DNA of 64,000 bases from a virus. Lineage: Duplodnaviria; Caudoviricetes. How positions within the stretch are numbered: position 1 is the first letter of the stretch; each line of letters begins with the position of its first letter. This document shows, piece after piece, positions 1,024 to 18,324 of this stretch. Both the position numbers and the translations under genes were made by a program. The stretch covers positions 1-64,000 of the IMG/VR virus record IMGVR_UViG_2596583600_000002. One strand, 5' to 3'. Under the pieces are notes generated by a model, which worked only from the letters and a program-made list of their open reading frames with translations, ran no database searches and was not told the origin of the DNA.

Positions 1024-1345
1024 CGCGCCAAATATTTCCCACTTCCCAGTTGGGCGGGATATTGGGGGCTTTTCCGGGACGTATCGGGATGGGATGCCCG
1101 GAAAAACGGGCTTTCGCGGGTTTCGCGGTGCGTCGAAATGACGCGAGGAATTTTTGGCGCGTTTCGGGGTTTGGCAGATCAACGGGCGCTCCTGAAGCCT
1201 GAAAAACGGCGGAAATCCGTGGGCGCTTCACACTTTTCGTAAAATCCGCTTCCCACTTCCAATTTTGCCCGGTTTTCTGCGGCATTGCGCCGCCAGAACG
1301 TGTCCTTTGGGGGACATCAAAGTGTGAAGTAAAGTGGGAAGCGGA
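1024..1345. repeat. Left-end repeats: transposase-site-like copies plus CTTC(C/A)CACTT repeats
   Basis: CGCGCCAAATATT at 1024 mirrors the right-end site; AATTTTTGGCGCG at 1149; TCCGCTTCCCACTT (1245-1258) is the inverse of AAGTGGGAAGCGGA (1332-1345). Confidence 0.7.
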
Positions 1346-1353
1346 AATGGACA

Positions 1354-2211
1354 TCAGGCGCGTCCGCTGATGATCAGTTCGCGGACTGATTTGACGGCTT
1401 TGCCGCCGCCCACATGGTAGGTGGTTTCTTCCTCCTCGATGTCAAATCCGGCGAACAGTTTTCGCACTGTCGGATGATCATTGAGGCTGAGCAGGAACCG
1501 GCCTTGCAGGCTCCCCAGCCGCTCCGCCATTTCCTCAAATTCGGGCTGGCCGAACATGCCAGCACCATAGTCTCCCTCGCAGTTGAAATATGGGGGATCG
1601 AGGTAGAACAATATGCCCGGCCGGTCGTAGCGGGTGAGGAAATCCTGCCATCGCAACCTTTCGATCGTCACTGGCGCGAGGCGCTCATGCAGCGCTTCCA
1701 GCATGGGCGCGAGCTTGGTCAAATCGAAGCGGCTGGGATTGAACGGCGTCACGCCGAAAGAGCGGGTGGTGACCTTTCCGCCAAAGGCCAACCGTTGCAG
1801 ATACAGGAAGCGCGCGGCACGTTGCATGTCCGTCAGGGAGGACGGATCGAGGCGCAACAGCTTCTCGAAACCGGCCCGCGACGCGATCTGAAAGCGGATC
1901 ATGTCCAGGAAGGCGACATAATGATGTTGCAGGACGCGGAAGAAGGTGGAGACATCCTCCGACCAGTCATTGATGACCTCTGCCTTGGGGCGCAGATCGC
2001 GGCGCAGAAAGACGCCTCCCATGCCCACAAACACCTCCGCGTAGGTATGATGCGGTATCGCATTGATGCGGCCGATCACCCGCTTTGCGAGATTGCGCTT
2101 GCCGCCGATATAGGGCGCGACCGGACGCACAGGATCGACAGATTGCAAGGGCGTTGAAACGTCATTGTCAGCCGCATGAAGCGGCATGGAAAAGGGACTC
2201 GACTCTGTCAC
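1354..2211 (-). CDS. D12-class N6-adenine DNA methyltransferase (Dam-like)
   Basis: PYIGGK, EVFVGMGGVF, INDW, YLDPPY, LSLND motifs; start uncertain (GTG 2211 or ATG 2187; frame stays open to 2490). Confidence 0.93.
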   Translation of the reverse strand: MTESSPFSMPLHAADNDVSTPLQSVDPVRPVAPYIGGKRNLAKRVIGRINAIPHHTYAEVFVGMGGVFLRRDLRPKAEVINDWSEDVSTFFRVLQHHYVAFLDMIRFQIASRAGFEKLLRLDPSSLTDMQRAARFLYLQRLAFGGKVTTRSFGVTPFNPSRFDLTKLAPMLEALHERLAPVTIERLRWQDFLTRYDRPGILFYLDPPYFNCEGDYGAGMFGQPEFEEMAERLGSLQGRFLLSLNDHPTVRKLFAGFDIEEEETTYHVGGGKAVKSVRELIISGRA

Positions 2212-2214
2212 GAT

Positions 2215-2229
2215 GTTCTCTATGTGTTC
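2215..2229. promoter_or_regulatory. LexA (SOS) box upstream of the methylase
   Basis: GTTC-tctatgt-GTTC matches the alphaproteobacterial GTTC-N7-GTTC consensus. Confidence 0.8.
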
Positions 2230-2375
2230 GTCCCGTCCAGCGTTGGATGGCGGGATGGTTTCGGCTTTGGCCAGCCGGATCATGACGGGTCGAGTCCGTC
2301 GGCTTGGGGCGTTGGCGCGCCCCATCCCCCGCCCACGGGCGGTGAATTGAAAATTAGAGATTTCGGCGCTATGTA

Positions 2376-2487
2376 AGGGGAGCGATGCGCGCGACGCGGT
2401 GAATTCTTCCCTCCGTAGCGCGAGGCTACTGGCCGTCGACCGCTTAGCAGGGGACAGGAAGTCCCTGCCACGCATCGCTTCTCCCCT
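2376..2487 (-). ncRNA. Candidate structured RNA directly downstream of MuF
   Basis: Closing stem 2376-2389/2471-2487; internal stems GCAGGG/CCCTGC, GCGGT/ACCGC, GTAGC/GCTAC; loop CTTCC complementary to GGAAG. Confidence 0.55.
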
Positions 2488-3719
2488 CATTGCCGCCTAT
2501 CCATCAGGATCGTGAGATGACGCGTCTCGGCCGCGATGTTGCGCACACGGCTCCGATGGAAGCTGACGACGATGGGTAGTTCGTCGCCAGCATCCTGACG
2601 CACGACAGCCTTCCACACGTTGCCCGCCTCGTCGGCGAAGAAGATCAGCCGATCGGAACCCTGCTGGGCGATGACTAGGGCGCGGGACACAATGTCAGGC
2701 AGAAGCCGATAAGCGTCCGGCCCTAGCTCTGGGTGACCACGCGACACGTCGGGCTGGTCGCCTCGCTGCTTGCGATAGACGCCTTCTGGCATGACCACCA
2801 CACGGGCATTTGCCTGTATCGCCTCCTGTTGGGCCGGATCGAGGATCGCAACAGGAAAAGCGCCGCTGGGCCGCGCCAGAAACTGGTCAAAGGCGGGATC
2901 GCGGATGATTTCCCGCAGGGTGGCATCCGCCGCCGCGTCCATACCCGCATCGGTGGCGGCGCGGAGCGAGGCAACGGTTTTTGTGGCGACGGCCCGCAGA
3001 TGGGCGGTGCCGGGATTGTAGCTGAAGCCGGGATCGATCCCGTCGGGAACCATGATAGGTTGGCCGGTCGCCGGGATGAACATGCGCGCGCCCTGGGGAA
3101 GGTTGTGTTCGGGCGTGATGGCCCAGCCCATCCGCTTCATGCGCCGTTCGCTGACCTGCTCGAAATGGCATTTGCAGCCCCAGCCATTGGGCGGAAAGTG
3201 TGTCTGCCAGAAGGGATGATCGACCGGCAGGAGAATGCCATACCATGTCATGTGGAGCGGGCGCTTATGCTCTGACGTCGAGGGCAGATAGCGCAGATAG
3301 GGGTAAACGTCCTTCTGGCGCTGGATGCGGGTCCAGTGGCCCGACGCCATGCTCATGCGAACGTTGGTGTTGTAGATCGTCCGCAGGCGGCGGTTGTTGA
3401 CGATGATAGTCTCGTCCGTGCCGGTCAGTTCGGCGTTGGATACCGCGCCCCACCAGCCTGTCTTTCGCAGTTCGGGCATGATGCCCGACTTCCATTCTTC
3501 GAACGTGCCGCCGTTGCGGATCACGTCGTCGATCGACGTGCGCATCGAGCGCAGCAGATCGAGCTTCGCGACCTTGGCGACCGTGAAGGCGACAGCATGA
3601 TTTTCGTGCATCATTTCCGACCAGCGGACGGTCGGCTGCAATGCATCGCGCGCTTCGAAGGCGCGAACGACATCATCAGGCTTCAGGAAGATGGAATAGC
3701 CGAGGTTGTCAGCCATCAC
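2487..3719 (-). CDS. MuF (gp30-like) head morphogenesis protein with C-terminal BECR-fold (PBECR2-like) nuclease domain
   Basis: AFTVAKV, RLRTIYNTN, HFPPNGWGCKC, GIDPGFSYNPG; extension with HPEL..Y..LP and VSFHR. Confidence 0.88.
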   Translation of the reverse strand: MMADNLGYSIFLKPDDVVRAFEARDALQPTVRWSEMMHENHAVAFTVAKVAKLDLLRSMRTSIDDVIRNGGTFEEWKSGIMPELRKTGWWGAVSNAELTGTDETIIVNNRRLRTIYNTNVRMSMASGHWTRIQRQKDVYPYLRYLPSTSEHKRPLHMTWYGILLPVDHPFWQTHFPPNGWGCKCHFEQVSERRMKRMGWAITPEHNLPQGARMFIPATGQPIMVPDGIDPGFSYNPGTAHLRAVATKTVASLRAATDAGMDAAADATLREIIRDPAFDQFLARPSGAFPVAILDPAQQEAIQANARVVVMPEGVYRKQRGDQPDVSRGHPELGPDAYRLLPDIVSRALVIAQQGSDRLIFFADEAGNVWKAVVRQDAGDELPIVVSFHRSRVRNIAAETRHLTILMDRRQ

Positions 3720-3949
3720 CGCCTCCTTCGGTCACAGGCCATCACGCCGCGTGGAATGCGTCCTGCTGCAAGCTCACGTTCGACGGCGCGCATCTGGGCC
3801 GCGATGTGGCGTTCTTCGATCGGCAGTCCGCGGAGCATTGCCCATCCATGTTCAGTATCGGGGAGGCCCAGATAACGGCGGTATTCATCATCATCGCCGA
3901 AATCGGCGGGAAGCGGGTCTATGTCCGATGTTCCGATGCGACAGTTCAT
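3716..3949 (-). CDS. Hypothetical protein
   Basis: ATGA overlaps with both neighbours. Confidence 0.6.
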   Translation of the reverse strand: MNCRIGTSDIDPLPADFGDDDEYRRYLGLPDTEHGWAMLRGLPIEERHIAAQMRAVERELAAGRIPRGVMACDRRRR

Positions 3950-4623
3950 GCCAGTTGCAGGCGCTCGGCGCTGCCTCCCACGCCCTTAGAGAGATCGACT
4001 TTCCGTCCGGCCTGATGACCGCGCCAGTAGTCATTTTCGAGTCGGCCGCCTTTCGTGGACGCGCTGCGATTGTCGACCGTCGCCAGATCGCCGCCGAAGC
4101 GCTTGGCGATATATTGGTCGACAAGCAAGTTGGCGGCGACGGGCGGCATCAGAGCCTTGACCTTGCTATAAACCGCTCTGGCCCAAGCCTCGCAGAACAC
4201 ATCCGCGCGCTGACGCTTGCGTCCGGGGCGGCAGCGCTTGAGATGGACGCGGATATATTCCTGCCGTGCCGCCTTCAACTGGCGAAACAGAACGGTGAAA
4301 GCGAAACCGGCGATTTCGGGGACTGGGCCGGGTCCGATGTAAATCCGATGCAGGTCCGCGTCGATGATGACCTTGCAGCCCAGCGCGTGGCGGACAGTCA
4401 TGCATAGCGCCGTTTCCCATAGCGGCGGGCGCTGTGTCGCCGTGCCCTTTGCCTTCGCTTCGCCGATTTCCGACAGCGCAATGTCATCCATGGACAAGTC
4501 ATGCTCATCCATTAGCGCACGGGCTTTCGCCAGCGCGGCGGCGGCCTCATGCTCGTTGGAGGATTTAGCCAGGGCGAGGCATTTCCTGATCTTCGAGAGC
4601 AGTACGTGGCGGTCGTCCGACAT
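3946..4623 (-). CDS. DUF2786 family protein
   Basis: KIRKCLALAKSSNEHEAAAALAKARALM signature. Confidence 0.85.
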   Translation of the reverse strand: MSDDRHVLLSKIRKCLALAKSSNEHEAAAALAKARALMDEHDLSMDDIALSEIGEAKAKGTATQRPPLWETALCMTVRHALGCKVIIDADLHRIYIGPGPVPEIAGFAFTVLFRQLKAARQEYIRVHLKRCRPGRKRQRADVFCEAWARAVYSKVKALMPPVAANLLVDQYIAKRFGGDLATVDNRSASTKGGRLENDYWRGHQAGRKVDLSKGVGGSAERLQLA

Positions 4624-4868
4624 TATTCGAGACCCAGTGCGTTCTTGTAGGTCTCCAGCAACGCTTCCGCTTCCATGCGGGAATTGCGTTCCAGTTTCCG
4701 CAGCCGGATGATCGCCCGCATCGTTGCCACGTCATAGCCATTGGCCTTGGCCTCCAGATAGATATCCTTGATATCGTCAGCGATGGCCCTTTTCTCTTCT
4801 TCCAGGCGCTCAATACGCTCGATCAAGAGGCGCAACTGTTCGGCGGCCACGTTACCTTCGGACATCAA
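4623..4868 (-). CDS. GapR-like (DUF2312) DNA-binding protein
   Basis: QLRLLIERIERLEEEK..IADDIKDIYLEAKANGYD...LLETYKNALG. Confidence 0.92.
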   Translation of the reverse strand: MMSEGNVAAEQLRLLIERIERLEEEKRAIADDIKDIYLEAKANGYDVATMRAIIRLRKLERNSRMEAEALLETYKNALGLE

Positions 4869-6937
4869 TTTTCTCCCTGAGTAGCAAGTTGGATCGCGGC
4901 GTCGAGCTGGACGGCGAAGCCCGCCCGTTCGAGCGCCTGGACAAGGGGCTGATCGTCCATAGCGCCGAGGGCGTCGGACAGGATGGCGCGCGCTTCGGTT
5001 TCGCTGTCGGCCGCAAGCAGCCGATCGACAATGTTGCCCGTCATCGCGTTGGCGACGCGATAGCCGTCCTCCGCGATCATGCGGTCCACGATGCCGTCGG
5101 CGTCGTCGTGGCCGTCGTCATCCAGTTCGGCAAAGCTGGCAGCGGATGGGACTTCCGCCACCGTTTCATGCCAGTCACTTCGGATTGCCTCGAAGCGTTC
5201 TGGCCCGAAAACAAGACGGCCCTGATAAGGGGCGACCTTCGCCAGATCGAGATTGTCCGCCTCATAGGTCAGGGTGACGTGAGGCAGATAGGAGGGATGA
5301 TCCCAGCTAGCGCCCGCGTCCCGCATTTCGCGGTGTCGCCATTGCAGGTCGACGGATTGAAACAGCAATGCAACGGCCCCGTCATCGCCCAGCCGTTCGA
5401 CCAGGCGCGGGCCACCGGGGCCGACAATGACCTCCCCGGTGTTGGAGCCGAATTGCCCCATGGCAAACCAGTTCACCGGCCGTTTGGAATAGGTGACCGT
5501 GACATGCAGATCGTCGGCCGGAAGCGTAGAGGTGAAACCCTGCGACCGCGCCCAGTCCAGCACTTCGCTGGCATTGAGAAGCTGGCGATAAACATAAAGC
5601 GGGCGTGGATCGTCTGCCGCGAAGCTGACAACATCCTTGCCATTTTCAGGGATTGGCGACTTGCGCAATTTGTCAAACTGGCCGTTTTGCTTGTCTTCGG
5701 CCCACTGGGGGGCGGCGCTGGATGGAGCATCGGGATCATCACGGCGCACGAAGCCTTCGCCATAGGTGTCACGGAAGCTGTCTTCCGTGCGGACCCAGCC
5801 ATTGCTGGCATGGATCGCGTCCGTTTCCGCGTTGGCCTTGGTGTCTTCCTCCTCCTCGACGATACGGCGCACGATGGGTGCCGCGACATCGGGGCCAAAA
5901 TTCCAGTCGGTCCACCAGCGCGCCACCTGTGCGGTGAAACTGTCGGTCAGATCGTCCGCGTCGGTCTTAACGACCTCCAGCTTGACGTCGGCATGGACCT
6001 CACCCTGTGAGCGCGAAGAGCCGTTGTCCGTGGTCATCGTCTGCGACAGCACGATCTTGGCGATGGCCGCGTCCATATAGAGGCAGAGCTGATGATAATC
6101 GCCCATGCCGGAACGGGCGGCGGTCAGCAGTTCCACCGCCATGCCTTCGGGAACGACAAATCCGCTATCCGTCGCAATGGCCTGAAGCGCCATCAGCAGC
6201 TTGTTGATGTCATCGCTGCTGGAGCCGCGCGGATAGGTGCCCTTCGCCGTCGGGGTGCCGAATTTATCGAGGAAGATATTCCAGAAGCGGATGCCGTTCC
6301 GCTTGAACAGGGTGGGCCAGTAAAGCCAATGGGCAAGGCCGTGGCCATAGGGCTGATCGTCGTCGGCTGCGCCCACGCTGTGCACCCAGAACTTGCGTTC
6401 GGGCATGATCTCGCCCTGCATGCTCGTGGGCGTGAGCATCCGCAGCTGATCCTCATCATCGAACCTGAAGCGGCGGGCATGGCGCACCTTCATGCCGACG
6501 ATGTCGAACAGCCCGTCGCGCTGGCCCCACATCAGTTCGGCCACGCTGTAGCCGTAGAAAGAAGCCATCAGCATCTTGCGGGTGATGCGATCCCAGGGCA
6601 GGCGCTTGAGCGTCCGGTCGAACGCTTCCGCCGCCTTTTCGGCGCGCGGATCATCATCGTCCCCGGCGATCACATTCCAATCGCGCGCGACGACTGCGCC
6701 GATGCGCTGTTGCATCGTCGAAAAGACCTGGTCATCGTTGAACACGACATCATAGGCGCCCCAGTCGATGGCGGTGGCCAGCTTGGGGTCTTTGGCTTCG
6801 CGCAGGCCGCGCACCCATGGCTGGGTGATATCGCGGCCGTCGCGAGTGGTGGCGATCTCTGTCGTCAGATCGGGCGACGGTCGGGGAACGGCAGTCGTTC
6901 GGCCGAATGAGCGGTAGGGCGCAGGACGTTGGGCCAT
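4865..6937 (-). CDS. Mu-type portal (DUF935/gp29) carrying an internal Acb1-like 2H phosphoesterase domain (~5160-5615)
   Basis: YGYSVAELMW, FLDKFGTP, IAKIVLSQTMTT portal motifs; insert with LYV...HVTVTYS...RH...GA...PHVTLTY...DW. Confidence 0.92.
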   Translation of the reverse strand: MAQRPAPYRSFGRTTAVPRPSPDLTTEIATTRDGRDITQPWVRGLREAKDPKLATAIDWGAYDVVFNDDQVFSTMQQRIGAVVARDWNVIAGDDDDPRAEKAAEAFDRTLKRLPWDRITRKMLMASFYGYSVAELMWGQRDGLFDIVGMKVRHARRFRFDDEDQLRMLTPTSMQGEIMPERKFWVHSVGAADDDQPYGHGLAHWLYWPTLFKRNGIRFWNIFLDKFGTPTAKGTYPRGSSSDDINKLLMALQAIATDSGFVVPEGMAVELLTAARSGMGDYHQLCLYMDAAIAKIVLSQTMTTDNGSSRSQGEVHADVKLEVVKTDADDLTDSFTAQVARWWTDWNFGPDVAAPIVRRIVEEEEDTKANAETDAIHASNGWVRTEDSFRDTYGEGFVRRDDPDAPSSAAPQWAEDKQNGQFDKLRKSPIPENGKDVVSFAADDPRPLYVYRQLLNASEVLDWARSQGFTSTLPADDLHVTVTYSKRPVNWFAMGQFGSNTGEVIVGPGGPRLVERLGDDGAVALLFQSVDLQWRHREMRDAGASWDHPSYLPHVTLTYEADNLDLAKVAPYQGRLVFGPERFEAIRSDWHETVAEVPSAASFAELDDDGHDDADGIVDRMIAEDGYRVANAMTGNIVDRLLAADSETEARAILSDALGAMDDQPLVQALERAGFAVQLDAAIQLATQGEN

Positions 6938-8478
6938 TAGAAGGACAATCCGGTTGACCGGCGGCCGACAGTGCCGAAGCCGGTGGTGGTGATGACGGTT
7001 TCAGCGGCGGAGGAACGGGTCTGGTTGAGGACATGAACGTCCATCGGGCCGACGTCCTCGTCAGCAGCCGCGCGCAGGTGCATGAGCGCGATCGCGTTGT
7101 CGCCATGGCGCTTGCCCTTCGCTCCATCGGCCTTCGACTGGATGGAGCCGTCGGGAATTTTCGGGACGCCCTTGACCAGCTTGACCATCCGCAGGTCGTT
7201 GAGCGTTCCTTCGTCCTTGGGGATGATGAAGGTCCGATCTTCCAGCCCGGCCTTGAGCTTGGGCATGAAGGCGAGATAGCTCTTGTCGCTGGCCATCACC
7301 GCTTCAATGCGGTTCGCTCCCCATTTCTGCTGGGCATATTCCGCCAGCGCCGAGCCGTTGCCGCGCGCGTCCATCTTGCCGGAACAGAAGTTCGGCATCC
7401 GCGACACGATCCAGTTGAGCACGAATTCCTGCTCGCGGAAGGGCACGTTCCGCATTTCGAGGATGAATCGGCAGATCAGATTGAGGTGCTGATCGAGCTG
7501 GCCCGCTGCGATCGGCGAGACGTCGCCATTGCGGGCGAAGTCCTGACCGAAGAACGACCGGCGCAATGGGTCGAAGTCGCGCAGCCACGGCCCGACCTCA
7601 TCTTCCAGAAACTCGCGCACGAATTCCTGCCGATATTCGTCGGACTGTTGCTCGAAGCCATCGGGGCATGTCAGGCGGATGACGGGCAGTTCCGGCGACA
7701 TGGCGGCTATGATGGTGGCGCGGGATAGATAGACACCGGAGCCGCGCGACGGAATGACGTCCAGTTCCTCCTCGGCTGCATCGCCATAGCGCTTGCGGAG
7801 GGACGCTTCCCACGCCTTTTCCTTCTCCGCCGACCATTCCTCGCCATTTCGCAGGCAGATGCGTTTGAACAGGCCGTCCGCCAGTGCTTCGGCCAGCGTG
7901 ATGCGCATGACGTGCCCCTCCTTCTTTCCCTCCCGAATTTCTTCGATCAGCAGGTTGAAGGGATTATCCGCCCCGTCATGGGTGGAAATGACAACGACAT
8001 GACTGCCCCACATGGTGAGCGCCATCGCCGCCTTCAGCAATTCGTCCAGATCGTCGTGGAACGCGGCTTCGTCGATCAGAACCTTGCCCTGCATGCCGCG
8101 AAGCGAGCGCGGCTTGGAGGACAGGGCGATAACGGCCTTGCCTGACGGGAAGTCCACGCGGAGCGCCTTGATCCCGTTTTCCGACCCATCGTCGAACAGG
8201 AATTCGGACGAGCCGGTGGCGACCTCGTCAAAAGCCTTCGCGAAGTCGCCGACATAGCCGATGAACTCCCGCGTCATGTCGAGATTATAGGCGATGTAAT
8301 AGACGTTCTGCGGGCGAAAGGCGGGCGCGGCTGTCAGCACGGCATCGGCGGCGAAACCATAGGTGATGCCGGTGCGTCGTGATTTTTCAATGACCAGCAG
8401 CTGATGCTGGGCGCTCAGCGCAATCGCCGATGCCTGGTAGGGCAGGAGCAGCTTGATATCGGACAGGGCGCTGGTCAT
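6937..8478 (-). CDS. terL: Terminase large subunit (Mu gp28-like)
   Basis: LLPYQ, EKSRRTGIT, IDEAAFH, GQDFAR, HGD motifs. Confidence 0.93.
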   Translation of the reverse strand: MTSALSDIKLLLPYQASAIALSAQHQLLVIEKSRRTGITYGFAADAVLTAAPAFRPQNVYYIAYNLDMTREFIGYVGDFAKAFDEVATGSSEFLFDDGSENGIKALRVDFPSGKAVIALSSKPRSLRGMQGKVLIDEAAFHDDLDELLKAAMALTMWGSHVVVISTHDGADNPFNLLIEEIREGKKEGHVMRITLAEALADGLFKRICLRNGEEWSAEKEKAWEASLRKRYGDAAEEELDVIPSRGSGVYLSRATIIAAMSPELPVIRLTCPDGFEQQSDEYRQEFVREFLEDEVGPWLRDFDPLRRSFFGQDFARNGDVSPIAAGQLDQHLNLICRFILEMRNVPFREQEFVLNWIVSRMPNFCSGKMDARGNGSALAEYAQQKWGANRIEAVMASDKSYLAFMPKLKAGLEDRTFIIPKDEGTLNDLRMVKLVKGVPKIPDGSIQSKADGAKGKRHGDNAIALMHLRAAADEDVGPMDVHVLNQTRSSAAETVITTTGFGTVGRRSTGLSF

Positions 8479-8882
8479 TTTCGGCGCACCTTCCGCGACC
8501 GGCGTGATCGCACTGCAGCGCGCTCATCGCGATCGCACGGATCGAACCATTCGGCCTCGCCCCGGCCAACGCGCTGGAGAAATTCCGCCGCCTCGCGAAA
8601 GCCAGATTGGCCATCCAGCGACACAAGATCGAGGTGCGGCACGGCCTGCCAGTTCTTGGCTGGCATCCGGTGGTTGGAAATCCGGATGAGCCAGGGCCGA
8701 TCCGCGCGGTCGGAAAGGTGAATATAGCGCGAGCAGGAGCCGGGATTACGGCTCGCGCGGATGCATACCAGCGTCAGGCGGCAGTCTGCCGCCGCCTCGC
8801 CCAGCTTGAGCGCCAGATTGAGGATGTCGGTGGGCGTTGCGGCTGGTTTGCCCGCTCCGCATCCGGTTACGAGGCGAAGCAT
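8475..8882 (-). CDS. Hypothetical protein
   Basis: Coupled to terL by ATGA overlap; SRY...IRISNH motif. Confidence 0.6.
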   Translation of the reverse strand: MLRLVTGCGAGKPAATPTDILNLALKLGEAAADCRLTLVCIRASRNPGSCSRYIHLSDRADRPWLIRISNHRMPAKNWQAVPHLDLVSLDGQSGFREAAEFLQRVGRGEAEWFDPCDRDERAAVRSRRSRKVRRK

Positions 8883-8884
8883 GG

Positions 8885-9130
8885 TCACAGACCCATGCCT
8901 TTCAGCCGGGCGATGCCGACGACCTGACAGGCGAGTGCCGATCCCGTATAGCCGCCCACCTGATAGCGGGGGATGGGGCTGTCCCCCAACCGGAACTGCT
9001 GCACCCTGACGCCAGCACGAGCGAGATAATCCAGGGCAGCCTTCAGGCGGCGCGGCGGCACCGCGTCGGCGCTGAAGCCCGCGATCGGCGTTTCGGCGAA
9101 CCTGTCCAGGGCGGCGAACAAATCCGTCAC
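8885..9130 (-). CDS. Hypothetical protein
   Basis: GTGA overlap with the terS stop. Confidence 0.55.
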   Translation of the reverse strand: MTDLFAALDRFAETPIAGFSADAVPPRRLKAALDYLARAGVRVQQFRLGDSPIPRYQVGGYTGSALACQVVGIARLKGMGL

Positions 9131-9669
9131 GCCGCCAACCCCAGCAGCTTGGCCTTGATGCGGTCGATGGCGGCTTCGGATGCCCCGGCGTCCCGTGCGG
9201 CTTCCACCGCATCGTCGGCGGCCTTGCGCCGAGCTTCCTTGGCCGCTTCCTCGCGGATGCGGGCATCGCGTTCCGCGTCGATCTTCGCCGAGGAAAGCAG
9301 TTCCTTCGTGGCCTTGGCCAGCAGATGGAAATCCTTGGCGCTGACGTCGGGGTCTTCCTCCGACGCCATGGGCAGGACCATCCGGGTGCCGATGCTGGTC
9401 AGCATGTGCACCATCAACTTGCCCTCGGCATTGTCGGTGCCGCCAAATTCCGATGCGAACGCCTCCGCGACCGAACGCACGTCGCGCTGGCGGGAAGCCA
9501 GTTCCGAATATTGCTTGGCATAGCGGCCGACGGCAGAACGCGACCGCTTATGGCCTAGTTCGGCCAGCCTCCCCACGATGTCGTCAATTGTGGCACCTGC
9601 CTCCATCGCCTGAAGGACGGCGGCCTGGACACCGTGCGGCAGCGTTTTGAGCGACGATTTGCGCCCCAT
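9127..9669 (-). CDS. terS: Terminase small subunit (DUF3486, Mu gp27-like)
   Basis: MGRKSS..LP, SRSAVGRY; position upstream of terL. Confidence 0.85.
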   Translation of the reverse strand: MGRKSSLKTLPHGVQAAVLQAMEAGATIDDIVGRLAELGHKRSRSAVGRYAKQYSELASRQRDVRSVAEAFASEFGGTDNAEGKLMVHMLTSIGTRMVLPMASEEDPDVSAKDFHLLAKATKELLSSAKIDAERDARIREEAAKEARRKAADDAVEAARDAGASEAAIDRIKAKLLGLAA

Positions 9670-9670
9670 G

Positions 9671-9970
9671 TCACCGCTTGCCCGTCTTGTGACGCCAGAT
9701 ATCCTCGACGCGAAGGCGACCTTCGGCCACCTCGCAACCGTTCGGCAGGATCGATGCGACCACATAGGGGCCGCAGTCCGTCACCTCGACAAGGTTCAGG
9801 TCATGCTGGGCGAGCCAGCGCATCTGTTCGGCCACGGCCGGGCGGGGGAAACGATGGCCCAGTCCGGTCAACAACACGGTCAGGACATCGTCATTTTCCT
9901 CGCCGCCGATGTCGTTCAGCAGATCGAGGATGGCGCGCCGCACAAGGGGCAGGATCGCTTCGGGGATCAT
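9671..9970 (-). CDS. Mu gp26-like winged-helix protein
   Basis: RRAILDLL...WLAQHDL...G.EVAEG; conserved position before terS. Confidence 0.75.
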   Translation of the reverse strand: MIPEAILPLVRRAILDLLNDIGGEENDDVLTVLLTGLGHRFPRPAVAEQMRWLAQHDLNLVEVTDCGPYVVASILPNGCEVAEGRLRVEDIWRHKTGKR

Positions 9971-10326
9971 GGCCGCAGCCCCCGGTCGACAAGGATTTTC
10001 AGATAATCGTTGGTCGTCTCAAGATGGGTGGAAAGCCCCTTGAAGGATGCCTCCATCGCACTGACCCGCTCAGCCAGATCACCCATTTCCGCCATAAGCT
10101 GGACGCGCGTCGGCGGATCGTCCCGCTCGTCCTTCAAATCCTTTATGGCGTTGGTCGTCGCGACCTGATCGACCTTGAGCTTGTCGACGGTGAGCTTCAG
10201 CGCGTCGAAATCGTCCTTCGACGGAAATTTCTGCCGCAGCCAAAGAAACCCGGCGAGCAGGATAAGAGGCGTGATCGTGGATGCGATCGGCCAGAGGTCA
10301 ATGATAAGCTGAATCCAGTCAGGCAC
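9967..10326 (-). CDS. DUF2730 / Mu gp25-like membrane-anchored coiled-coil protein
   Basis: N-terminal TM segment, coiled coil, PPT motif, synteny. Confidence 0.7.
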   Translation of the reverse strand: MPDWIQLIIDLWPIASTITPLILLAGFLWLRQKFPSKDDFDALKLTVDKLKVDQVATTNAIKDLKDERDDPPTRVQLMAEMGDLAERVSAMEASFKGLSTHLETTNDYLKILVDRGLRP

Positions 10327-15411: not shown

Positions 15412-15698
15412 GGACGGCCCCCGCGATCCAGCGCATGAGCCAGCTCACCCGCGATGTGGACCATCCGATCCTTTTCTCGGACCTCATCGGGTGAGGCCGT
15501 TCCGTGCATGGCGCGTCCGCAGAGATGGAGCGCCTCGCCTGCGATCTTGCGATGCAGGATCGTCATGTCTTCGCGGCTCAGTATCAGGGCGAAGATTTCT
15601 TCGCCGCGTTGCTCGGCTTCACGAAGAGCCTTGCCCAGGTCGCGTTCGAGCTTTGCCTTGACCGGCGGCTGCATCGGGTTGGGAAACCGGGCCGTCAT
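15408..15698 (-). CDS. Hypothetical protein
   Basis: Coupled ORF. Confidence 0.55.
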   Translation of the reverse strand: MTARFPNPMQPPVKAKLERDLGKALREAEQRGEEIFALILSREDMTILHRKIAGEALHLCGRAMHGTASPDEVREKDRMVHIAGELAHALDRGGRP

Positions 15699-16510
15699 GC
15701 GATTTCCCTCCGACGGACGGGAACGTCGCCATTCGCCACCGGGCGGCTGCCCCACCATGCGGCGTCGACTTCGGCCACGCCTTCTTCAGCGGCGAGGCGC
15801 TGGGCCGCGCGCAGGTTCGTGACGATGCGGCGGGTGATGCCCTTGCAGCGCTGCCGGAACATGTCGGCAAGATCGTCGGCGACGGCCACCCTTGTGCAAT
15901 AATGGTCCCTCAACTTGAGAGTGTCGGCCGGGGAGGCCGGTTGTGCGGGGGTGGCGATCAGGATGCGGTTATCGAACCGCTCCCATTCCTTCAGCTTCAC
16001 CGGCAGCGCTTCTTCCCCGATCATCAGGATGGGGATCGACGTCGCGTCGTGAATGTCGCGGATGATCTCGACCGAGCGTTTCTGGACCAGATGGTCCATT
16101 TCGTCGATGATGATGGGGCGCGGTTCGTGGTTGAGTTGGTCTATGACCTGCCGCAGCAACCGGGCCACGGTTCGTTCCGGGCGGGTGATGCCCAGTTCTT
16201 CAGCCAGGGCTTCGAGCAATGAGCGTTGCGACCAGACAGACTGGGCGACGACATAGGCCGCCCCGGTGCGCGCCGCCGTGAAGGCGGCCGCGACCGTCTT
16301 GCCGTATCCGGAAAAGCCATAGAACAGGCCCATGCGGGGGGCTTCCTGCCCGGCGTCCTGACAGTCCAGCATGGTGCGGAGCGCCAGCGCCATATTGGTC
16401 AACTGGGCGCGCCCGGCGGGCGTATCTCCCAAATCAAGCCGTGGCTGGGTGGCAAAGTGGTTCATCGGCGTTTCCTCCGTTGTGAATGGCTGTTGAAAGG
16501 CGGTTGTCAT
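15695..16510 (-). CDS. MuB-like AAA ATPase (transposition B)
   Basis: Walker A GFSGYGKT, Walker B IIIDEMD; adjacent to the transposase. Confidence 0.93.
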   Translation of the reverse strand: MTTAFQQPFTTEETPMNHFATQPRLDLGDTPAGRAQLTNMALALRTMLDCQDAGQEAPRMGLFYGFSGYGKTVAAAFTAARTGAAYVVAQSVWSQRSLLEALAEELGITRPERTVARLLRQVIDQLNHEPRPIIIDEMDHLVQKRSVEIIRDIHDATSIPILMIGEEALPVKLKEWERFDNRILIATPAQPASPADTLKLRDHYCTRVAVADDLADMFRQRCKGITRRIVTNLRAAQRLAAEEGVAEVDAAWWGSRPVANGDVPVRRREIA

Positions 16511-18324
16511 GCGAACCCCCGGCGGCGCTGGGCCGGGGCGGGCGACGGTGCGCCGAAATCGGCGGCAATCATTTTCTCCGCCCGATATTCGGACGTGGTG
16601 GCATAGAGGCGCGCCCGACGAAGGGCTTCCGGATCGACCGTTTCGCCGCGCTCGGCCGCGAAGATGAGCGCGTCGGCTTCCGCCATCTTCTCGGCGGGCG
16701 TTCTCGTGGCGCGGGAAGGTGCCGTGGCCGTCCGGGCCAGCGCCTCTTCCAGCCGCGCCTGATCCGGCACCGAAGGCGATGGCGCGGTGGCGATGCTGTC
16801 CATGGCGGGCGTGGATGCGGGGCGCGATGGCATCGGCAGATGAGCCAGCTTGCCCGCCCGCTCCGCCTCGTCCCGCAGCACGGTGTCCATGGCCTTCTCG
16901 ACGGAGAAGGATGCCTTTTTCTTGCGAAGCTCGACGCGCTGGGCGTTGATGAGGTTGGCCATTTCGCGGCGGGCGGCGAGTGCCATTTCCCGCTGGGAGA
17001 AGCCCGCGCGCTCGACGTTCACGGCGGTGTCGATATATTCGCCCGCTTCGTCAAAGACGTAGAGCGCGCCAAGGTCGCCCTCGTCCCAGCGCAGCATGAC
17101 CTGTTTGCCCATGAACGGAACCAGCGTGTCGGCCCAATAGCGGCCATTCTTCCACCGAACGCCGCGCTTGGTCACCATGGACGGGCCGATCACCGCGCTG
17201 AAGGCGATCTTGAGGATGCTTTCAGGCGGGGCGGAGCGCGCCGGTTCGGGGGAGCGCTGCCATTTTTCCATCGGCGGCATGCCGATCATGCTGTGCCTGC
17301 GCTGGTGATAGGTGCCGTCTACCCACGCATCCAGAATGCGTTGCAGCTCGGCGCTGTCGATCCCGGCCTCTATGACGGCCCGGCCCTTCTCCTTCTTCGC
17401 ACGGGCGCGAAGTTGCTGCGCCTGCGCGACGTTATGACCAAGGAAGCCCTTGAGCATGGAGGCGCGCTCGCGGTTGAACGTGCCGAACACCCGCTCGATA
17501 TGCGGCTTGTCCTCCGGGTGGCCGGGGAGGCAGGGGTCCAGTTTGATGCCGACCGCGTCCAGCGACGCGATGATGGACGCGTTGATGAAGCCGGAGCCGT
17601 GATCGACCTTGAGGATCGCAGGCATCGCCCCCCATGCCAGCATGGTTGTCACCAGCATCTGGCGCACGGACTGGGCGCTTTCGCTTTCCACCACCATGAA
17701 CCGGGCGCGGCGCGACCAGCGGTCGATGATGCCGAGGATGGCCTTGCGGCCGTCGGTGCACATCACGTCCGCCTTGGTCGTGTCGATCTCCCACATTTCG
17801 TGGGCGTAGGAGACGGTCGCATCCATGCGGCCGAGCGCCGGGCGATACATGGACTTGAATTTGTCCGGATCGCGTTCTGCCGTGAGCAGGACTTTATGTT
17901 CTTTCTCGACGCGACGCATGTAGCGCTTCAGCGTTGGGAGGGACGGAAGATTTGCGAACTCGGCTTGCAAAAGTTCCATGACGCGCGTGGATGCATGCTT
18001 GTGGTCGGCGAGGATGACCAGGACGGCGTCCGCGACGTCGGGGTGACGGTCGAACCAGTCGCCCTTGGGGCGGCCGACGGAACGGGTGACGGAAAGGTTG
18101 GCGGGCGCAGTCCCGTCGCGGAGTCCATCCTGAGCGGATTTGGGCAGGTGCAATATGCTGAAGAAGCGAGCCTCGCCCCCACGCACCACCCGTGTCTCAT
18201 ATGCCCAGCCTTCAAGGTCGGCGCGGATCAGGACGCCCCTTTTCGTGGTCGGAAGACCGGGCAGGCGGAGGTCGGCGATTTCCTGCGCGCTCAGATATGC
18301 GGCTGGCCCCCCGATGACCGTCAT
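16507..18324 (-). CDS. MuA-like DDE transposase
   Basis: N-terminal Mu DNA-binding domain; WEIDTT, VDHGSGF, KPHIERVFGT. Confidence 0.95.
   Translation of the reverse strand: MTVIGGPAAYLSAQEIADLRLPGLPTTKRGVLIRADLEGWAYETRVVRGGEARFFSILHLPKSAQDGLRDGTAPANLSVTRSVGRPKGDWFDRHPDVADAVLVILADHKHASTRVMELLQAEFANLPSLPTLKRYMRRVEKEHKVLLTAERDPDKFKSMYRPALGRMDATVSYAHEMWEIDTTKADVMCTDGRKAILGIIDRWSRRARFMVVESESAQSVRQMLVTTMLAWGAMPAILKVDHGSGFINASIIASLDAVGIKLDPCLPGHPEDKPHIERVFGTFNRERASMLKGFLGHNVAQAQQLRARAKKEKGRAVIEAGIDSAELQRILDAWVDGTYHQRRHSMIGMPPMEKWQRSPEPARSAPPESILKIAFSAVIGPSMVTKRGVRWKNGRYWADTLVPFMGKQVMLRWDEGDLGALYVFDEAGEYIDTAVNVERAGFSQREMALAARREMANLINAQRVELRKKKASFSVEKAMDTVLRDEAERAGKLAHLPMPSRPASTPAMDSIATAPSPSVPDQARLEEALARTATAPSRATRTPAEKMAEADALIFAAERGETVDPEALRRARLYATTSEYRAEKMIAADFGAPSPAPAQRRRGFA

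Follow-up and report, generated by a model that had tools for sequence, protein, structure and literature searches.

Two bodies of published work bear most closely on the locus described here. Polymorphic toxins built on MuF, with immunity genes located downstream, are described in the accessible part of one study (Jamet et al., 2017; PMC5576092). In the accessible portions of another, PBECR domains are defined, the C-terminus of the phage Mu F protein (gp30) is assigned to them as "MuF-C", a His (or Arg) in an N-terminal helix together with a C-terminal Ser/Thr is given as their hallmark, RNase activity or RNA binding is predicted as their role, and solo versions are noted in phages (Iyer, Burroughs, Anand, de Souza, Aravind, 2017; PMC5512222). 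The present analysis concerns a stretch of 64,000 nucleotides (nt) from a Caudoviricetes virus (IMG/VR record IMGVR_UViG_2596583600_000002, positions 1 to 64,000), hereafter the window, in which a MuF gene with a C-terminal extension is directly followed by a structured RNA of about 105 nt. An original prediction, made from the sequence alone, read this pair as a virion-associated RNase with a cognate RNA. That reading is plausible but too narrow: what the sequences actually reveal is an RNA family, both new and widespread, whose genetic tie to PBECR domains is strong.

Results

A conserved RNA element downstream of MuF

The gene, its C-terminal domain and the parts of the RNA are placed as follows.

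2487-3719, minus strand: MuF (phage head morphogenesis / minor head), start GTG 3719 or ATG 3716, TGA stop 2487-2489
2490-2894, minus strand: PBECR-like (MuF-C) C-terminal domain, about 135 residues, with KQ, HPEL, YR and VSFHR motifs
2377-2486, minus strand: structured RNA element, about 105 nt directly 3' of the MuF stop; covariance-model match 2379-2483
2469-2478 with 2382-2391, minus strand: P1, 10 base pairs (bp), 5' strand GCGAUGCGUG and 3' strand CGCGCAUCGC
2392-2395, minus strand: conserved junction GUCG, just before the P1 3' strand
2462-2468 with 2447-2454, minus strand: P2 hairpin, GCAGGGA / UCCCCUGC, loop CUUCCUG
2418-2443, minus strand: P3 hairpin, its length varying among relatives, with a conserved GCG...CGC base
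2413-2416 with 2396-2399 (with loop, 2396-2416), minus strand: P4, ACGG/CCGY (CCGC in the window), holding the near-invariant UUCACCG
2457-2461 with 2406-2410, minus strand: kissing helix, 5 bp, P2 loop (CUUCC) with P4 loop (GGAAG)

As judged by comparison of aligned sequences, 2377-2486 is a conserved RNA locked by a pseudoknot, that is, a four-way junction of P1 to P4 in which the loops of P2 and P4 form a Watson-Crick kissing helix. On the same grounds it is a member of a previously uncatalogued family of ~100-110-nt RNAs of Alphaproteobacteria and their prophages, and homologous elements were found in genomes of the same genus, in IMG/VR contigs and in family-level relatives reached through the protein domain. 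The original prediction had described a strongly folding stretch of about 110 nt after the MuF stop, with a long closing stem, a GCAGGG/CCCUGC hairpin and a CUUCC:GGAAG loop pairing, and these features hold up: the 141 nt after the stop have a minimum free energy of -64.3 kcal/mol (z = -3.1; an equally good fold arose in 1 of 200 shuffles), and the stems and the loop pairing are present within the element and supported by covariation in 32 sequences. Two other proposed pieces, a GCGGU/ACCGC stem and a GUAGC/GCUAC hairpin, have to be given up, with 63.2% of cells paired versus 63.3% in shuffles and 0 compensatory changes; the segment forms the long P3 hairpin and the short P4 instead.

Covariation was assessed in an alignment of 32 sequences (A4) and in a second one of 63 further copies aligned to the covariance model (A5). 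In A4, 91.1% of cells are paired versus 78.8% in shuffles, both partners have changed in 18 of 34 pairs, none of 500 shuffles reaches the score, and slid controls give only 31-54% pairing; A5, which is fitted to the model and leans towards structure, has 91.4% of cells paired and 19 of 29 pairs changed on both sides. Covarying pairs make up 6 of 10 in P1 in A4 and 8 of 10 in A5, 4 of 7 in P2 (A4, with 96.9% of cells paired), and all 5 distal pairs of P3 in both alignments. The kissing helix is paired in 32 of 32 sequences of A4, where three of its five pairs covary, and 61 of the 63 further copies retain 5/5 loop-loop complementarity through 11 fully paired versions (CUUGC/GCAAG, CUCCC/GGGAG, CUUCC/GGAAG, CUGUA/UACAG and others). 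Nucleotides of the junction and of the P4 loop are near-invariant (GCUACGG, UUCACCGUGUC and GCGCGG). The covariance model, termed R1, scores the window copy at 89.7 bits (E 1e-13), and in this copy an outer GGGG/CCCC pairing lengthens P1. In our own reading, a four-way junction with a loop contact like that of D and T loops may be likened to the topology of transfer RNA (tRNA).

Several features lie in the 3' flank of the element. A (C/U)AUAGC box occurs at 2366-2376 (minus strand), ~10 nt 3' of P1, and recurs in many copies, including those that stand apart from the domain (orphans, below); in the Allosphingosinicella group the box is followed by a conserved CGAGUCGCGAAC, and a similar GAGUCGAGUC lies ahead of the methylase start in the window. 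Considered as a promoter, the ATAGC box shows no convincing −35/−10 geometry within or after the element, and pairing of UAGC with the conserved GCUA is without covariation. In genome G009 (loci L011/L014) an insertion of ~1.9 kb sits exactly after the RNA element and its AAUUUUCAAUUC tail and carries, in the same orientation, an 88-residue open reading frame (ORF) and an ORF of more than 400 residues, from which the spot is taken to be an insertion site for cargo (moron) genes.

Catalogue searches and non-coding status

Rfam 15 gave no match overlapping 2377-2486 at E<=10, and the elements at six further loci of the family likewise went unmatched at E<=1. ARAGORN reported zero tRNA or transfer-messenger RNA genes in the whole window, only the four-way topology being tRNA-like, no intrinsic terminator was predicted in 1300-3000, and blastn of the element against 50,697 cultured-phage records returned no match. 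The RNA is not described in the literature searched, which lay mostly outside subscription journals and supplements.

The claim that no small immunity ORF follows MuF was borne out. None is conserved downstream of the domain, where conservation is that of a non-coding RNA and the genes beyond it vary, and the ORFs that overlap 2188-2486 are disrupted among relatives through indels that shift the frame, through an in-frame TGA and, in G009, through the ~1.9-kb insertion. It is hardly credible that there is no RNA element here, only chance GC-rich pairing or an N-terminal extension of the methylase (ORF 1354-2490, with an ATGA overlap with the MuF stop). This ORF has no interruption across the region in the window, and genome G036 has a comparable open frame; however, the indels among relatives shift the frame, G009 combines the in-frame TGA with the insertion, substitutions are not enriched at third positions, and the Pfam methylase domain begins only at residue 127 of the ORF, while chance pairing is contradicted by compensatory changes that include the pseudoknot. 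Frameshifting, readthrough or a selenocysteine insertion sequence at the MuF stop, where the −1 frame is open into the methylase, was rejected: there is no slippery heptamer, the frames are unconserved, and relatives have insertions or stops.

Linkage between the RNA and the PBECR domain

The RNA and the PBECR domain form a recurrent domain-then-RNA module, with tight stop-codon spacing, in two gene architectures, one with the domain fused to MuF within the late operon of Mu-like prophages and the other with the domain on its own near the CI/CII immunity region of lambdoid-type prophages. In 30 of 30 RNA-bearing IMG/VR loci a PBECR-type ORF ends adjacent to and upstream of the RNA, 26 being recognised by hidden Markov model at E<=1e-3 and the other four, solo forms that share the aligned motif, at E 0.011-2.6. 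Of 36 unique elements, 21 begin ~5-10 nt past the stop and 8 are overlapped by the ORF end. A protein search of 400 family-level genomes recovered seven intact domain ORFs (32-100% identity), and the RNA accompanies 7/7. The solo form of the domain (132-166 residues) also comes with the RNA and lies beside CI-like and CII-like regulators in lambdoid-type prophages, at one locus beside RecT/ExoVIII; the pair thus reappears in gene surroundings that have nothing to do with MuF. The RNA of the window can be aligned as DNA with that of G036 (74%), and the adjoining domain-coding DNA cannot.

Beyond these loci, genome contigs were scanned with a pattern taken from the conserved core, hence core-biased, which yielded 69 loci and, at E<=1e-3, 63 matches to the covariance model; 24 of the 63 copies have the domain <=300 nt upstream. 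A covariance-model search of 150 class-level genomes added three copies. Copies are few per genome and diverge with compensation, which would speak against mobility of the kind shown by miniature inverted-repeat transposable elements; in the Allosphingosinicella group, however, copies that are almost the same have different flanks upstream. The genome of the window holds a single strong copy and, on another contig, a weak relative (L055, G000:C61:190702-190793; 28 bits, E ~0.1 genome-wide) in which P1 and P2 are recognisable and the core is degenerate. Tandem arrays also occur. Locus L076 (5110-5744, minus strand) has five abutting units, all of different subtypes, beside helix-turn-helix and ParB-like genes, L102 (4975-5257, plus strand) has two units of distinct subtype upstream of rpsL, and the units of both arrays differ in P2 and in the kissing-loop sequence.

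The C-terminal domain of MuF

The MuF ORF matches PHROG 220 ("minor head protein and DNA pilot", E 8e-78), and its homologues, with named ones from Sphingobium, Sphingomonas and Sphingopyxis, are 408-411 residues long and begin MAD. Pfam Phage_Mu_F (PF04233) accounts for residues 60-186 only (E 6e-13, 49.9 bits versus a cutoff of 29.6) and the ORF runs on to residue 410; the claimed extension of ~135 residues with HPEL and VSFHR is indeed present, in the last ~135 residues. Its assignment to the BECR type is a mixed case, in which fold similarity and weak PBECR2/3 matches in relatives speak for the claim and the window protein itself contributes no such match: its last 157 residues meet no Pfam model at E<=10, PBECR models included, and among 17 aligned relatives, counted at E<=1, PBECR3 is matched by two (best E 4.8e-5) and PBECR2 by one (E 0.002). 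A sequence search of the PDB, with the domain alone or a 17-sequence profile as query, gave nothing meaningful.

AlphaFold2, run on a 25-sequence alignment, confidently modelled MuF residues ~283-410, and a domain-only AlphaFold2 model from 17 diverse relatives reached a mean predicted local distance difference test score of 90.8. Foldseek of the whole-protein model found as its best match only BrnT, at E 0.15. When the domain model was compared with 48,161 PDB representatives by VIA-align, for which Z = 8 is the caution line, the top row was BrnT at Z 6.0, below that line (75 residues aligned, root-mean-square deviation 3.0), followed by CdiA-CT NC101 (Z 5.9), the Salmonella toxin 7vd7 (Z 5.7), a Serratia CdiA-CT (Z 5.1) and the colicin D tRNase (Z 5.0), with RelE, ParE, YoeB and HigB lower down at Z 3.5-4.1. 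Because all Z values are below 8, the argument for the fold rests on the consistency of the whole list and on no single score, and the list is dominated by RNase toxins that have dedicated inhibitors (BrnT, the CdiA-CTs, colicin D, RelE and YoeB). In these models, the MuF C-terminus does look like a BECR/RelE-like fold of the RNase type.

Across the relatives, the K of KQ, YR, a strand Lys and S/T-x-[H/R] are invariant or nearly so. The window domain has H in HPEL and S in VSFHR where relatives have H or R and then S/T, and we infer from the alignment that these sites are equivalent to the His/Arg and Ser/Thr sites of the published PBECR description. The "MuF-RNase fusion" of the original prediction is correct, yet already in print, as the accessible part of that publication makes plain (Iyer et al., 2017; PMC5512222).

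Discussion

The RNA as a proposed ligand of the domain

The data can be accommodated in a model, tentatively preferred here at somewhat less than an even chance, in which the RNA is the cognate ligand of the PBECR domain, probably as a pseudo-substrate or an RNA "immunity". The model is drawn from the recurrence of the module in two architectures, from the absence of a protein immunity gene although the structural relatives are RNases with dedicated inhibitors, from the RNA-directed function that was predicted in 2017 with no candidate RNA, and from the orphan arrays of distinct subtypes, which resemble orphan-immunity clusters. We infer binding, inhibition and capture in cis beyond what the structure, the covariation, the linkage and the fold class establish. 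A tRNA-like pseudo-substrate would occupy the active site and keep the RNase silent in the producing cell; the finished domain, leaving the ribosome on the adjacent stop codon, might take up the RNA in cis, and the chromosomal copies, whether orphan or tandem, would serve as stand-alone decoys. The tRNA-like character of the pseudo-substrate is speculation, suggested by the four-way junction with its D/T-like loop contact and by the tRNase relatives (colicin D, CdiA-CTs). A bolder version, which we regard as doubtful, holds that a BECR-fold RNase and a tRNA-shaped RNA make up a new protein-RNA toxin/immunity class, and that the chromosomal copies and arrays, one of them CRISPR-adjacent (clustered regularly interspaced short palindromic repeats), are decoys against phage-injected RNases.

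A number of observations weigh against a ligand role. Linkage in two architectures supports the original claim of an RNase paired with a cognate RNA, but the RNA is not exclusive to the domain: 39 of the 63 genome copies (34 loci) lie in 8-kb loci without a PBECR match on either strand, and 36 of these 39 orphans have at least 900 nt of upstream sequence. Some orphans occupy housekeeping spots, namely antisense between nusG and rplK, upstream of rpsL (two subtypes) and after glpX. Further ones lie after an endonuclease/exonuclease/phosphatase-family gene (several Allosphingosinicella and Sphingosinicella assemblies), next to brnA, in a region like an integrative and conjugative element with MobC, and in another Mu-like prophage, away from MuF. 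One of the three copies from the class-level search, at locus L059 (G549:C9, region 3598-10099), scores 73 bits (9993-10099, minus strand) and has no PBECR domain nearby; it is flanked on one side by a MaoC gene and on the other by the final, degenerate repeat of a type II-C CRISPR array of 27 repeats, which follows cas9 and cas2; a repeat array was found in 0/34 orphan loci, the G549 copy being the only one so placed. At greater distance, a domain profile search of 400 class-level genomes gave 13 loci with 11 intact-looking ORFs, and an R1-type RNA accompanies 5/11 and is absent from 6/11. In four solo forms (of the 36 unique elements) a terminator-like hairpin stands between ORF and RNA, at a spacing of 25-29 nt. 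The HPEL histidine is replaced, often by Arg, or absent in many RNA-linked relatives, and a downstream position gives at most one RNA per messenger RNA (mRNA). The RNA core is far more conserved than the protein, the solo forms being 12-13% identical to the window domain, which is unusual for a co-diversifying toxin/immunity pair and would also fit a conserved-host-factor partner or a catalytic RNA.

At one of the distant loci, L132 (G573:C6), a PBECR-ending MuF ORF is followed by a ~75-nt sequence in place of an R1-type RNA, with a possible closing stem, a hairpin and a 4-bp loop pairing (UCGC/GCGA). Read from sequence, this hints that other PBECR clades may have different downstream RNAs.

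Other explanations

The RNA may instead be an autonomous cis-acting signal for processing or for 3' ends, a tRNA-like "punctuation" cut by RNase P/RNase Z or blocking exonucleases, which would define and stabilise the upstream mRNA 3' end and uncouple the cargo genes downstream; its position after MuF-C ORFs would then reflect inherited synteny and insertion tolerance, with no protein-RNA partnership. This is unlikely in our estimation. In prophages the RNA is always on the coding strand just past a stop codon, the genes that follow are variable cargo, with insertions right after the RNA in G009, L018 and L043, and with no intrinsic terminator in 1300-3000 another 3'-end signal would be useful. 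Among orphan loci, a same-strand ORF ends <=60 nt upstream in 9/32, and in many others a convergent gene has its 3' end within ~130 nt of the RNA; the resemblance to tRNA that we see in the junction and its loop contact would also suit such a signal. However, ARAGORN recognises no tRNA-like gene, a strong copy lies antisense in the nusG-rplK spacer and others upstream of divergent genes, and in the solo-domain group a terminator-like hairpin already precedes the RNA. Nor does this explanation account for retention of the RNA beside the domain in two unrelated architectures, and the near-invariant junction nucleotides exceed what a stabiliser needs.

Those same nucleotides, unpaired within a compact pseudoknot-locked fold, would be expected of a new self-cleaving ribozyme or a ligand-binding aptamer independent of the PBECR domain, a possibility that we rate as improbable. 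Copies are scattered among unrelated genes, in both orientations and in tandem arrays, much as hammerhead and twister ribozymes are scattered in bacteria and prophages, and the RNA matches no Rfam family. However, no known ribozyme or riboswitch model matches at E<=10 (window region) or at E<=1 (six other loci), a riboswitch is unlikely because the gene contexts have no common metabolic theme, and in the L025 and L037 types an ORF stop falls inside the element, so that cleavage at its 5' edge would give non-stop mRNAs. Equally improbable, to our judgement, is a small RNA or RNA decoy that acts in trans and independently, with some conserved component of the host or of a defence system as its partner (for instance a host RNase, the ribosome or an RNA-guided defence), in which case a phage counter-defence or regulatory gene would merely lie beside MuF. 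Conservation of the RNA core far beyond that of the protein would be consistent with such a partner, as would the excess of chromosomal orphans over linked genome copies (39 versus 24), the copy that separates a type II-C CRISPR array, at its distal end, from the next gene, and a second virion-borne counter-defence domain in the same prophage, a Portal_Mu-Acb1 fusion. However, the tight fixed spacing to the PBECR ORF stop would be unexplained, upstream flanks of orphan copies are completely different and include no conserved promoter-like sequence, and the window's genome has one strong copy and no obvious host homologue.

Genomic setting

PHROG and Pfam annotation of gene content shows that the window opens with ~39 kb of Mu-like prophage, which besides its transposase genes encodes Gam, terminase, Portal_Mu, MuF, head protease, scaffold, major head, tail and lysis genes. 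The neighbouring features are these.

15695-18324: transposase A and B
6937-8478, minus strand: terminase
4865-6937, minus strand: portal, with Portal_Mu domain
2188-2352, minus strand: a further non-coding block, conserved and structured, that directly precedes the Dam-like methylase
1354-2187, minus strand: D12-class (Dam-like) DNA adenine methyltransferase (MethyltransfD12 E 1.7e-16; PHROG 56)

Along the minus strand the order is terminase, portal, a GapR-like gene, a DUF2786/DUF7168 gene, a 77-residue ORF, MuF, ~300 nt of non-coding sequence and the D12/Dam-like methylase. The portal protein (4865-6937) joins Portal_Mu (residues 62-393) to an Acb1-like 2H phosphodiesterase domain directed against the cyclic-oligonucleotide-based anti-phage signalling system (anti-CBASS; PF23474, E 7e-39, residues 446-591); with portal-Acb1 and MuF-PBECR both present, the locus therefore makes one virion module with two enzyme-like passengers. 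A Hammerhead_II row at 4299-4384 (plus strand), antisense within the DUF2786/DUF7168 gene, was judged to be chance, as its score lies below the gathering threshold (21.9 bits versus 37; E 0.59).

The start of the methylase is uncertain. The ATG at 2185-2187 is nearest to the domain, and the long ORF reaching 2490 is not conserved as coding. The block at 2188-2352 is conserved in 26 locus records, several of which are overlapping copies of the window's own region, with compensatory changes in 9 of 34 predicted pairs. Since inserted genes part it from the RNA element in G009, L018 and L043, the block belongs to the methylase, for which it may serve as a regulatory leader, with com/mom at the end of Mu as a positional analogue.

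Implications and comparison with known systems

For MuF-C domains, RNA cleavage or binding was predicted in 2017 with no known RNA target or partner, so far as the accessible text of that work extends, and the present RNA is a concrete, testable candidate. It also constitutes a resource: the RNA, ~105 nt long and strongly supported by covariation down to its kissing-loop pseudoknot, comes with ~100 natural variants and with a covariance model able to detect it. If the RNA inhibits or guides the RNase, RNA-antitoxin biology would reach beyond ToxN-type families to the BECR/RelE superfamily, a very large one, and phage effectors without immunity proteins would be explained; if the toxin/immunity reading is true, this would be the first RNA-based immunity in a polymorphic-toxin-like system as well as the missing RNA partner of MuF-C. 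A ribozyme, a processing signal or a host-factor decoy would still be a new, widespread class of bacterial and phage RNA absent from Rfam. The orphan arrays and the CRISPR-adjacent copy tie the RNA to phage-host conflict.

Among phage RNAs, Mu-gpT-DE and other Rfam phage RNA motifs have conserved structure just 3' of a Mu-like head gene and no assigned function. However, Mu-gpT-DE lies beside gene T and has another structure, whereas the present RNA lies beside F and has no Rfam 15 match at E<=10. The phi29 pRNA, too, comes from a phage, has two complementary loops that covary and is linked genetically to the head/portal module; it shares no sequence or Rfam similarity with the present RNA, which occurs also in non-phage loci and whose loop pairing need not be intermolecular. 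On the protein side, the likeness to PBECR/MuF-C lies in a MuF-fused C-terminal BECR fold with a His within the N-terminal helix plus a C-terminal Ser/Thr; the difference is that no RNA partner is described for those domains in the literature searched, insofar as its accessible parts go (Iyer et al., 2017; PMC5512222), and the window protein reaches none of the PBECR Pfam models (PF18810 / PF18812). The MuF polymorphic toxins, as far as the accessible portion of their description extends, share an N-terminal MuF, a variable C-terminal effector domain and a temperate phage, whereas here a conserved structured RNA replaces the immunity ORF position (Jamet et al., 2017; PMC5576092). The parallel with type III toxin-antitoxin (TA) systems (ToxIN, CptIN, TenpIN) begins well, in that an endoRNase-type protein is paired with a pseudoknotted non-coding RNA on a prophage or mobile element, without a protein antitoxin. 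However, it fails on toxin fold, on repeat array and on gene order: the toxin there has the ToxN/CptN/TenpN fold and the domain here is BECR/RelE-like with no such Pfam match, and the RNA there consists of tandem ~36-nt repeats upstream of the toxin, with a terminator between, whereas here a single ~105-nt four-way junction lies downstream, with no terminator predicted. Unlike type III repeats, the arrays of this RNA are of differing subtypes and have no adjacent toxin gene. By its defining features, then, the system is not a type III TA system, although it may work in a similar way.

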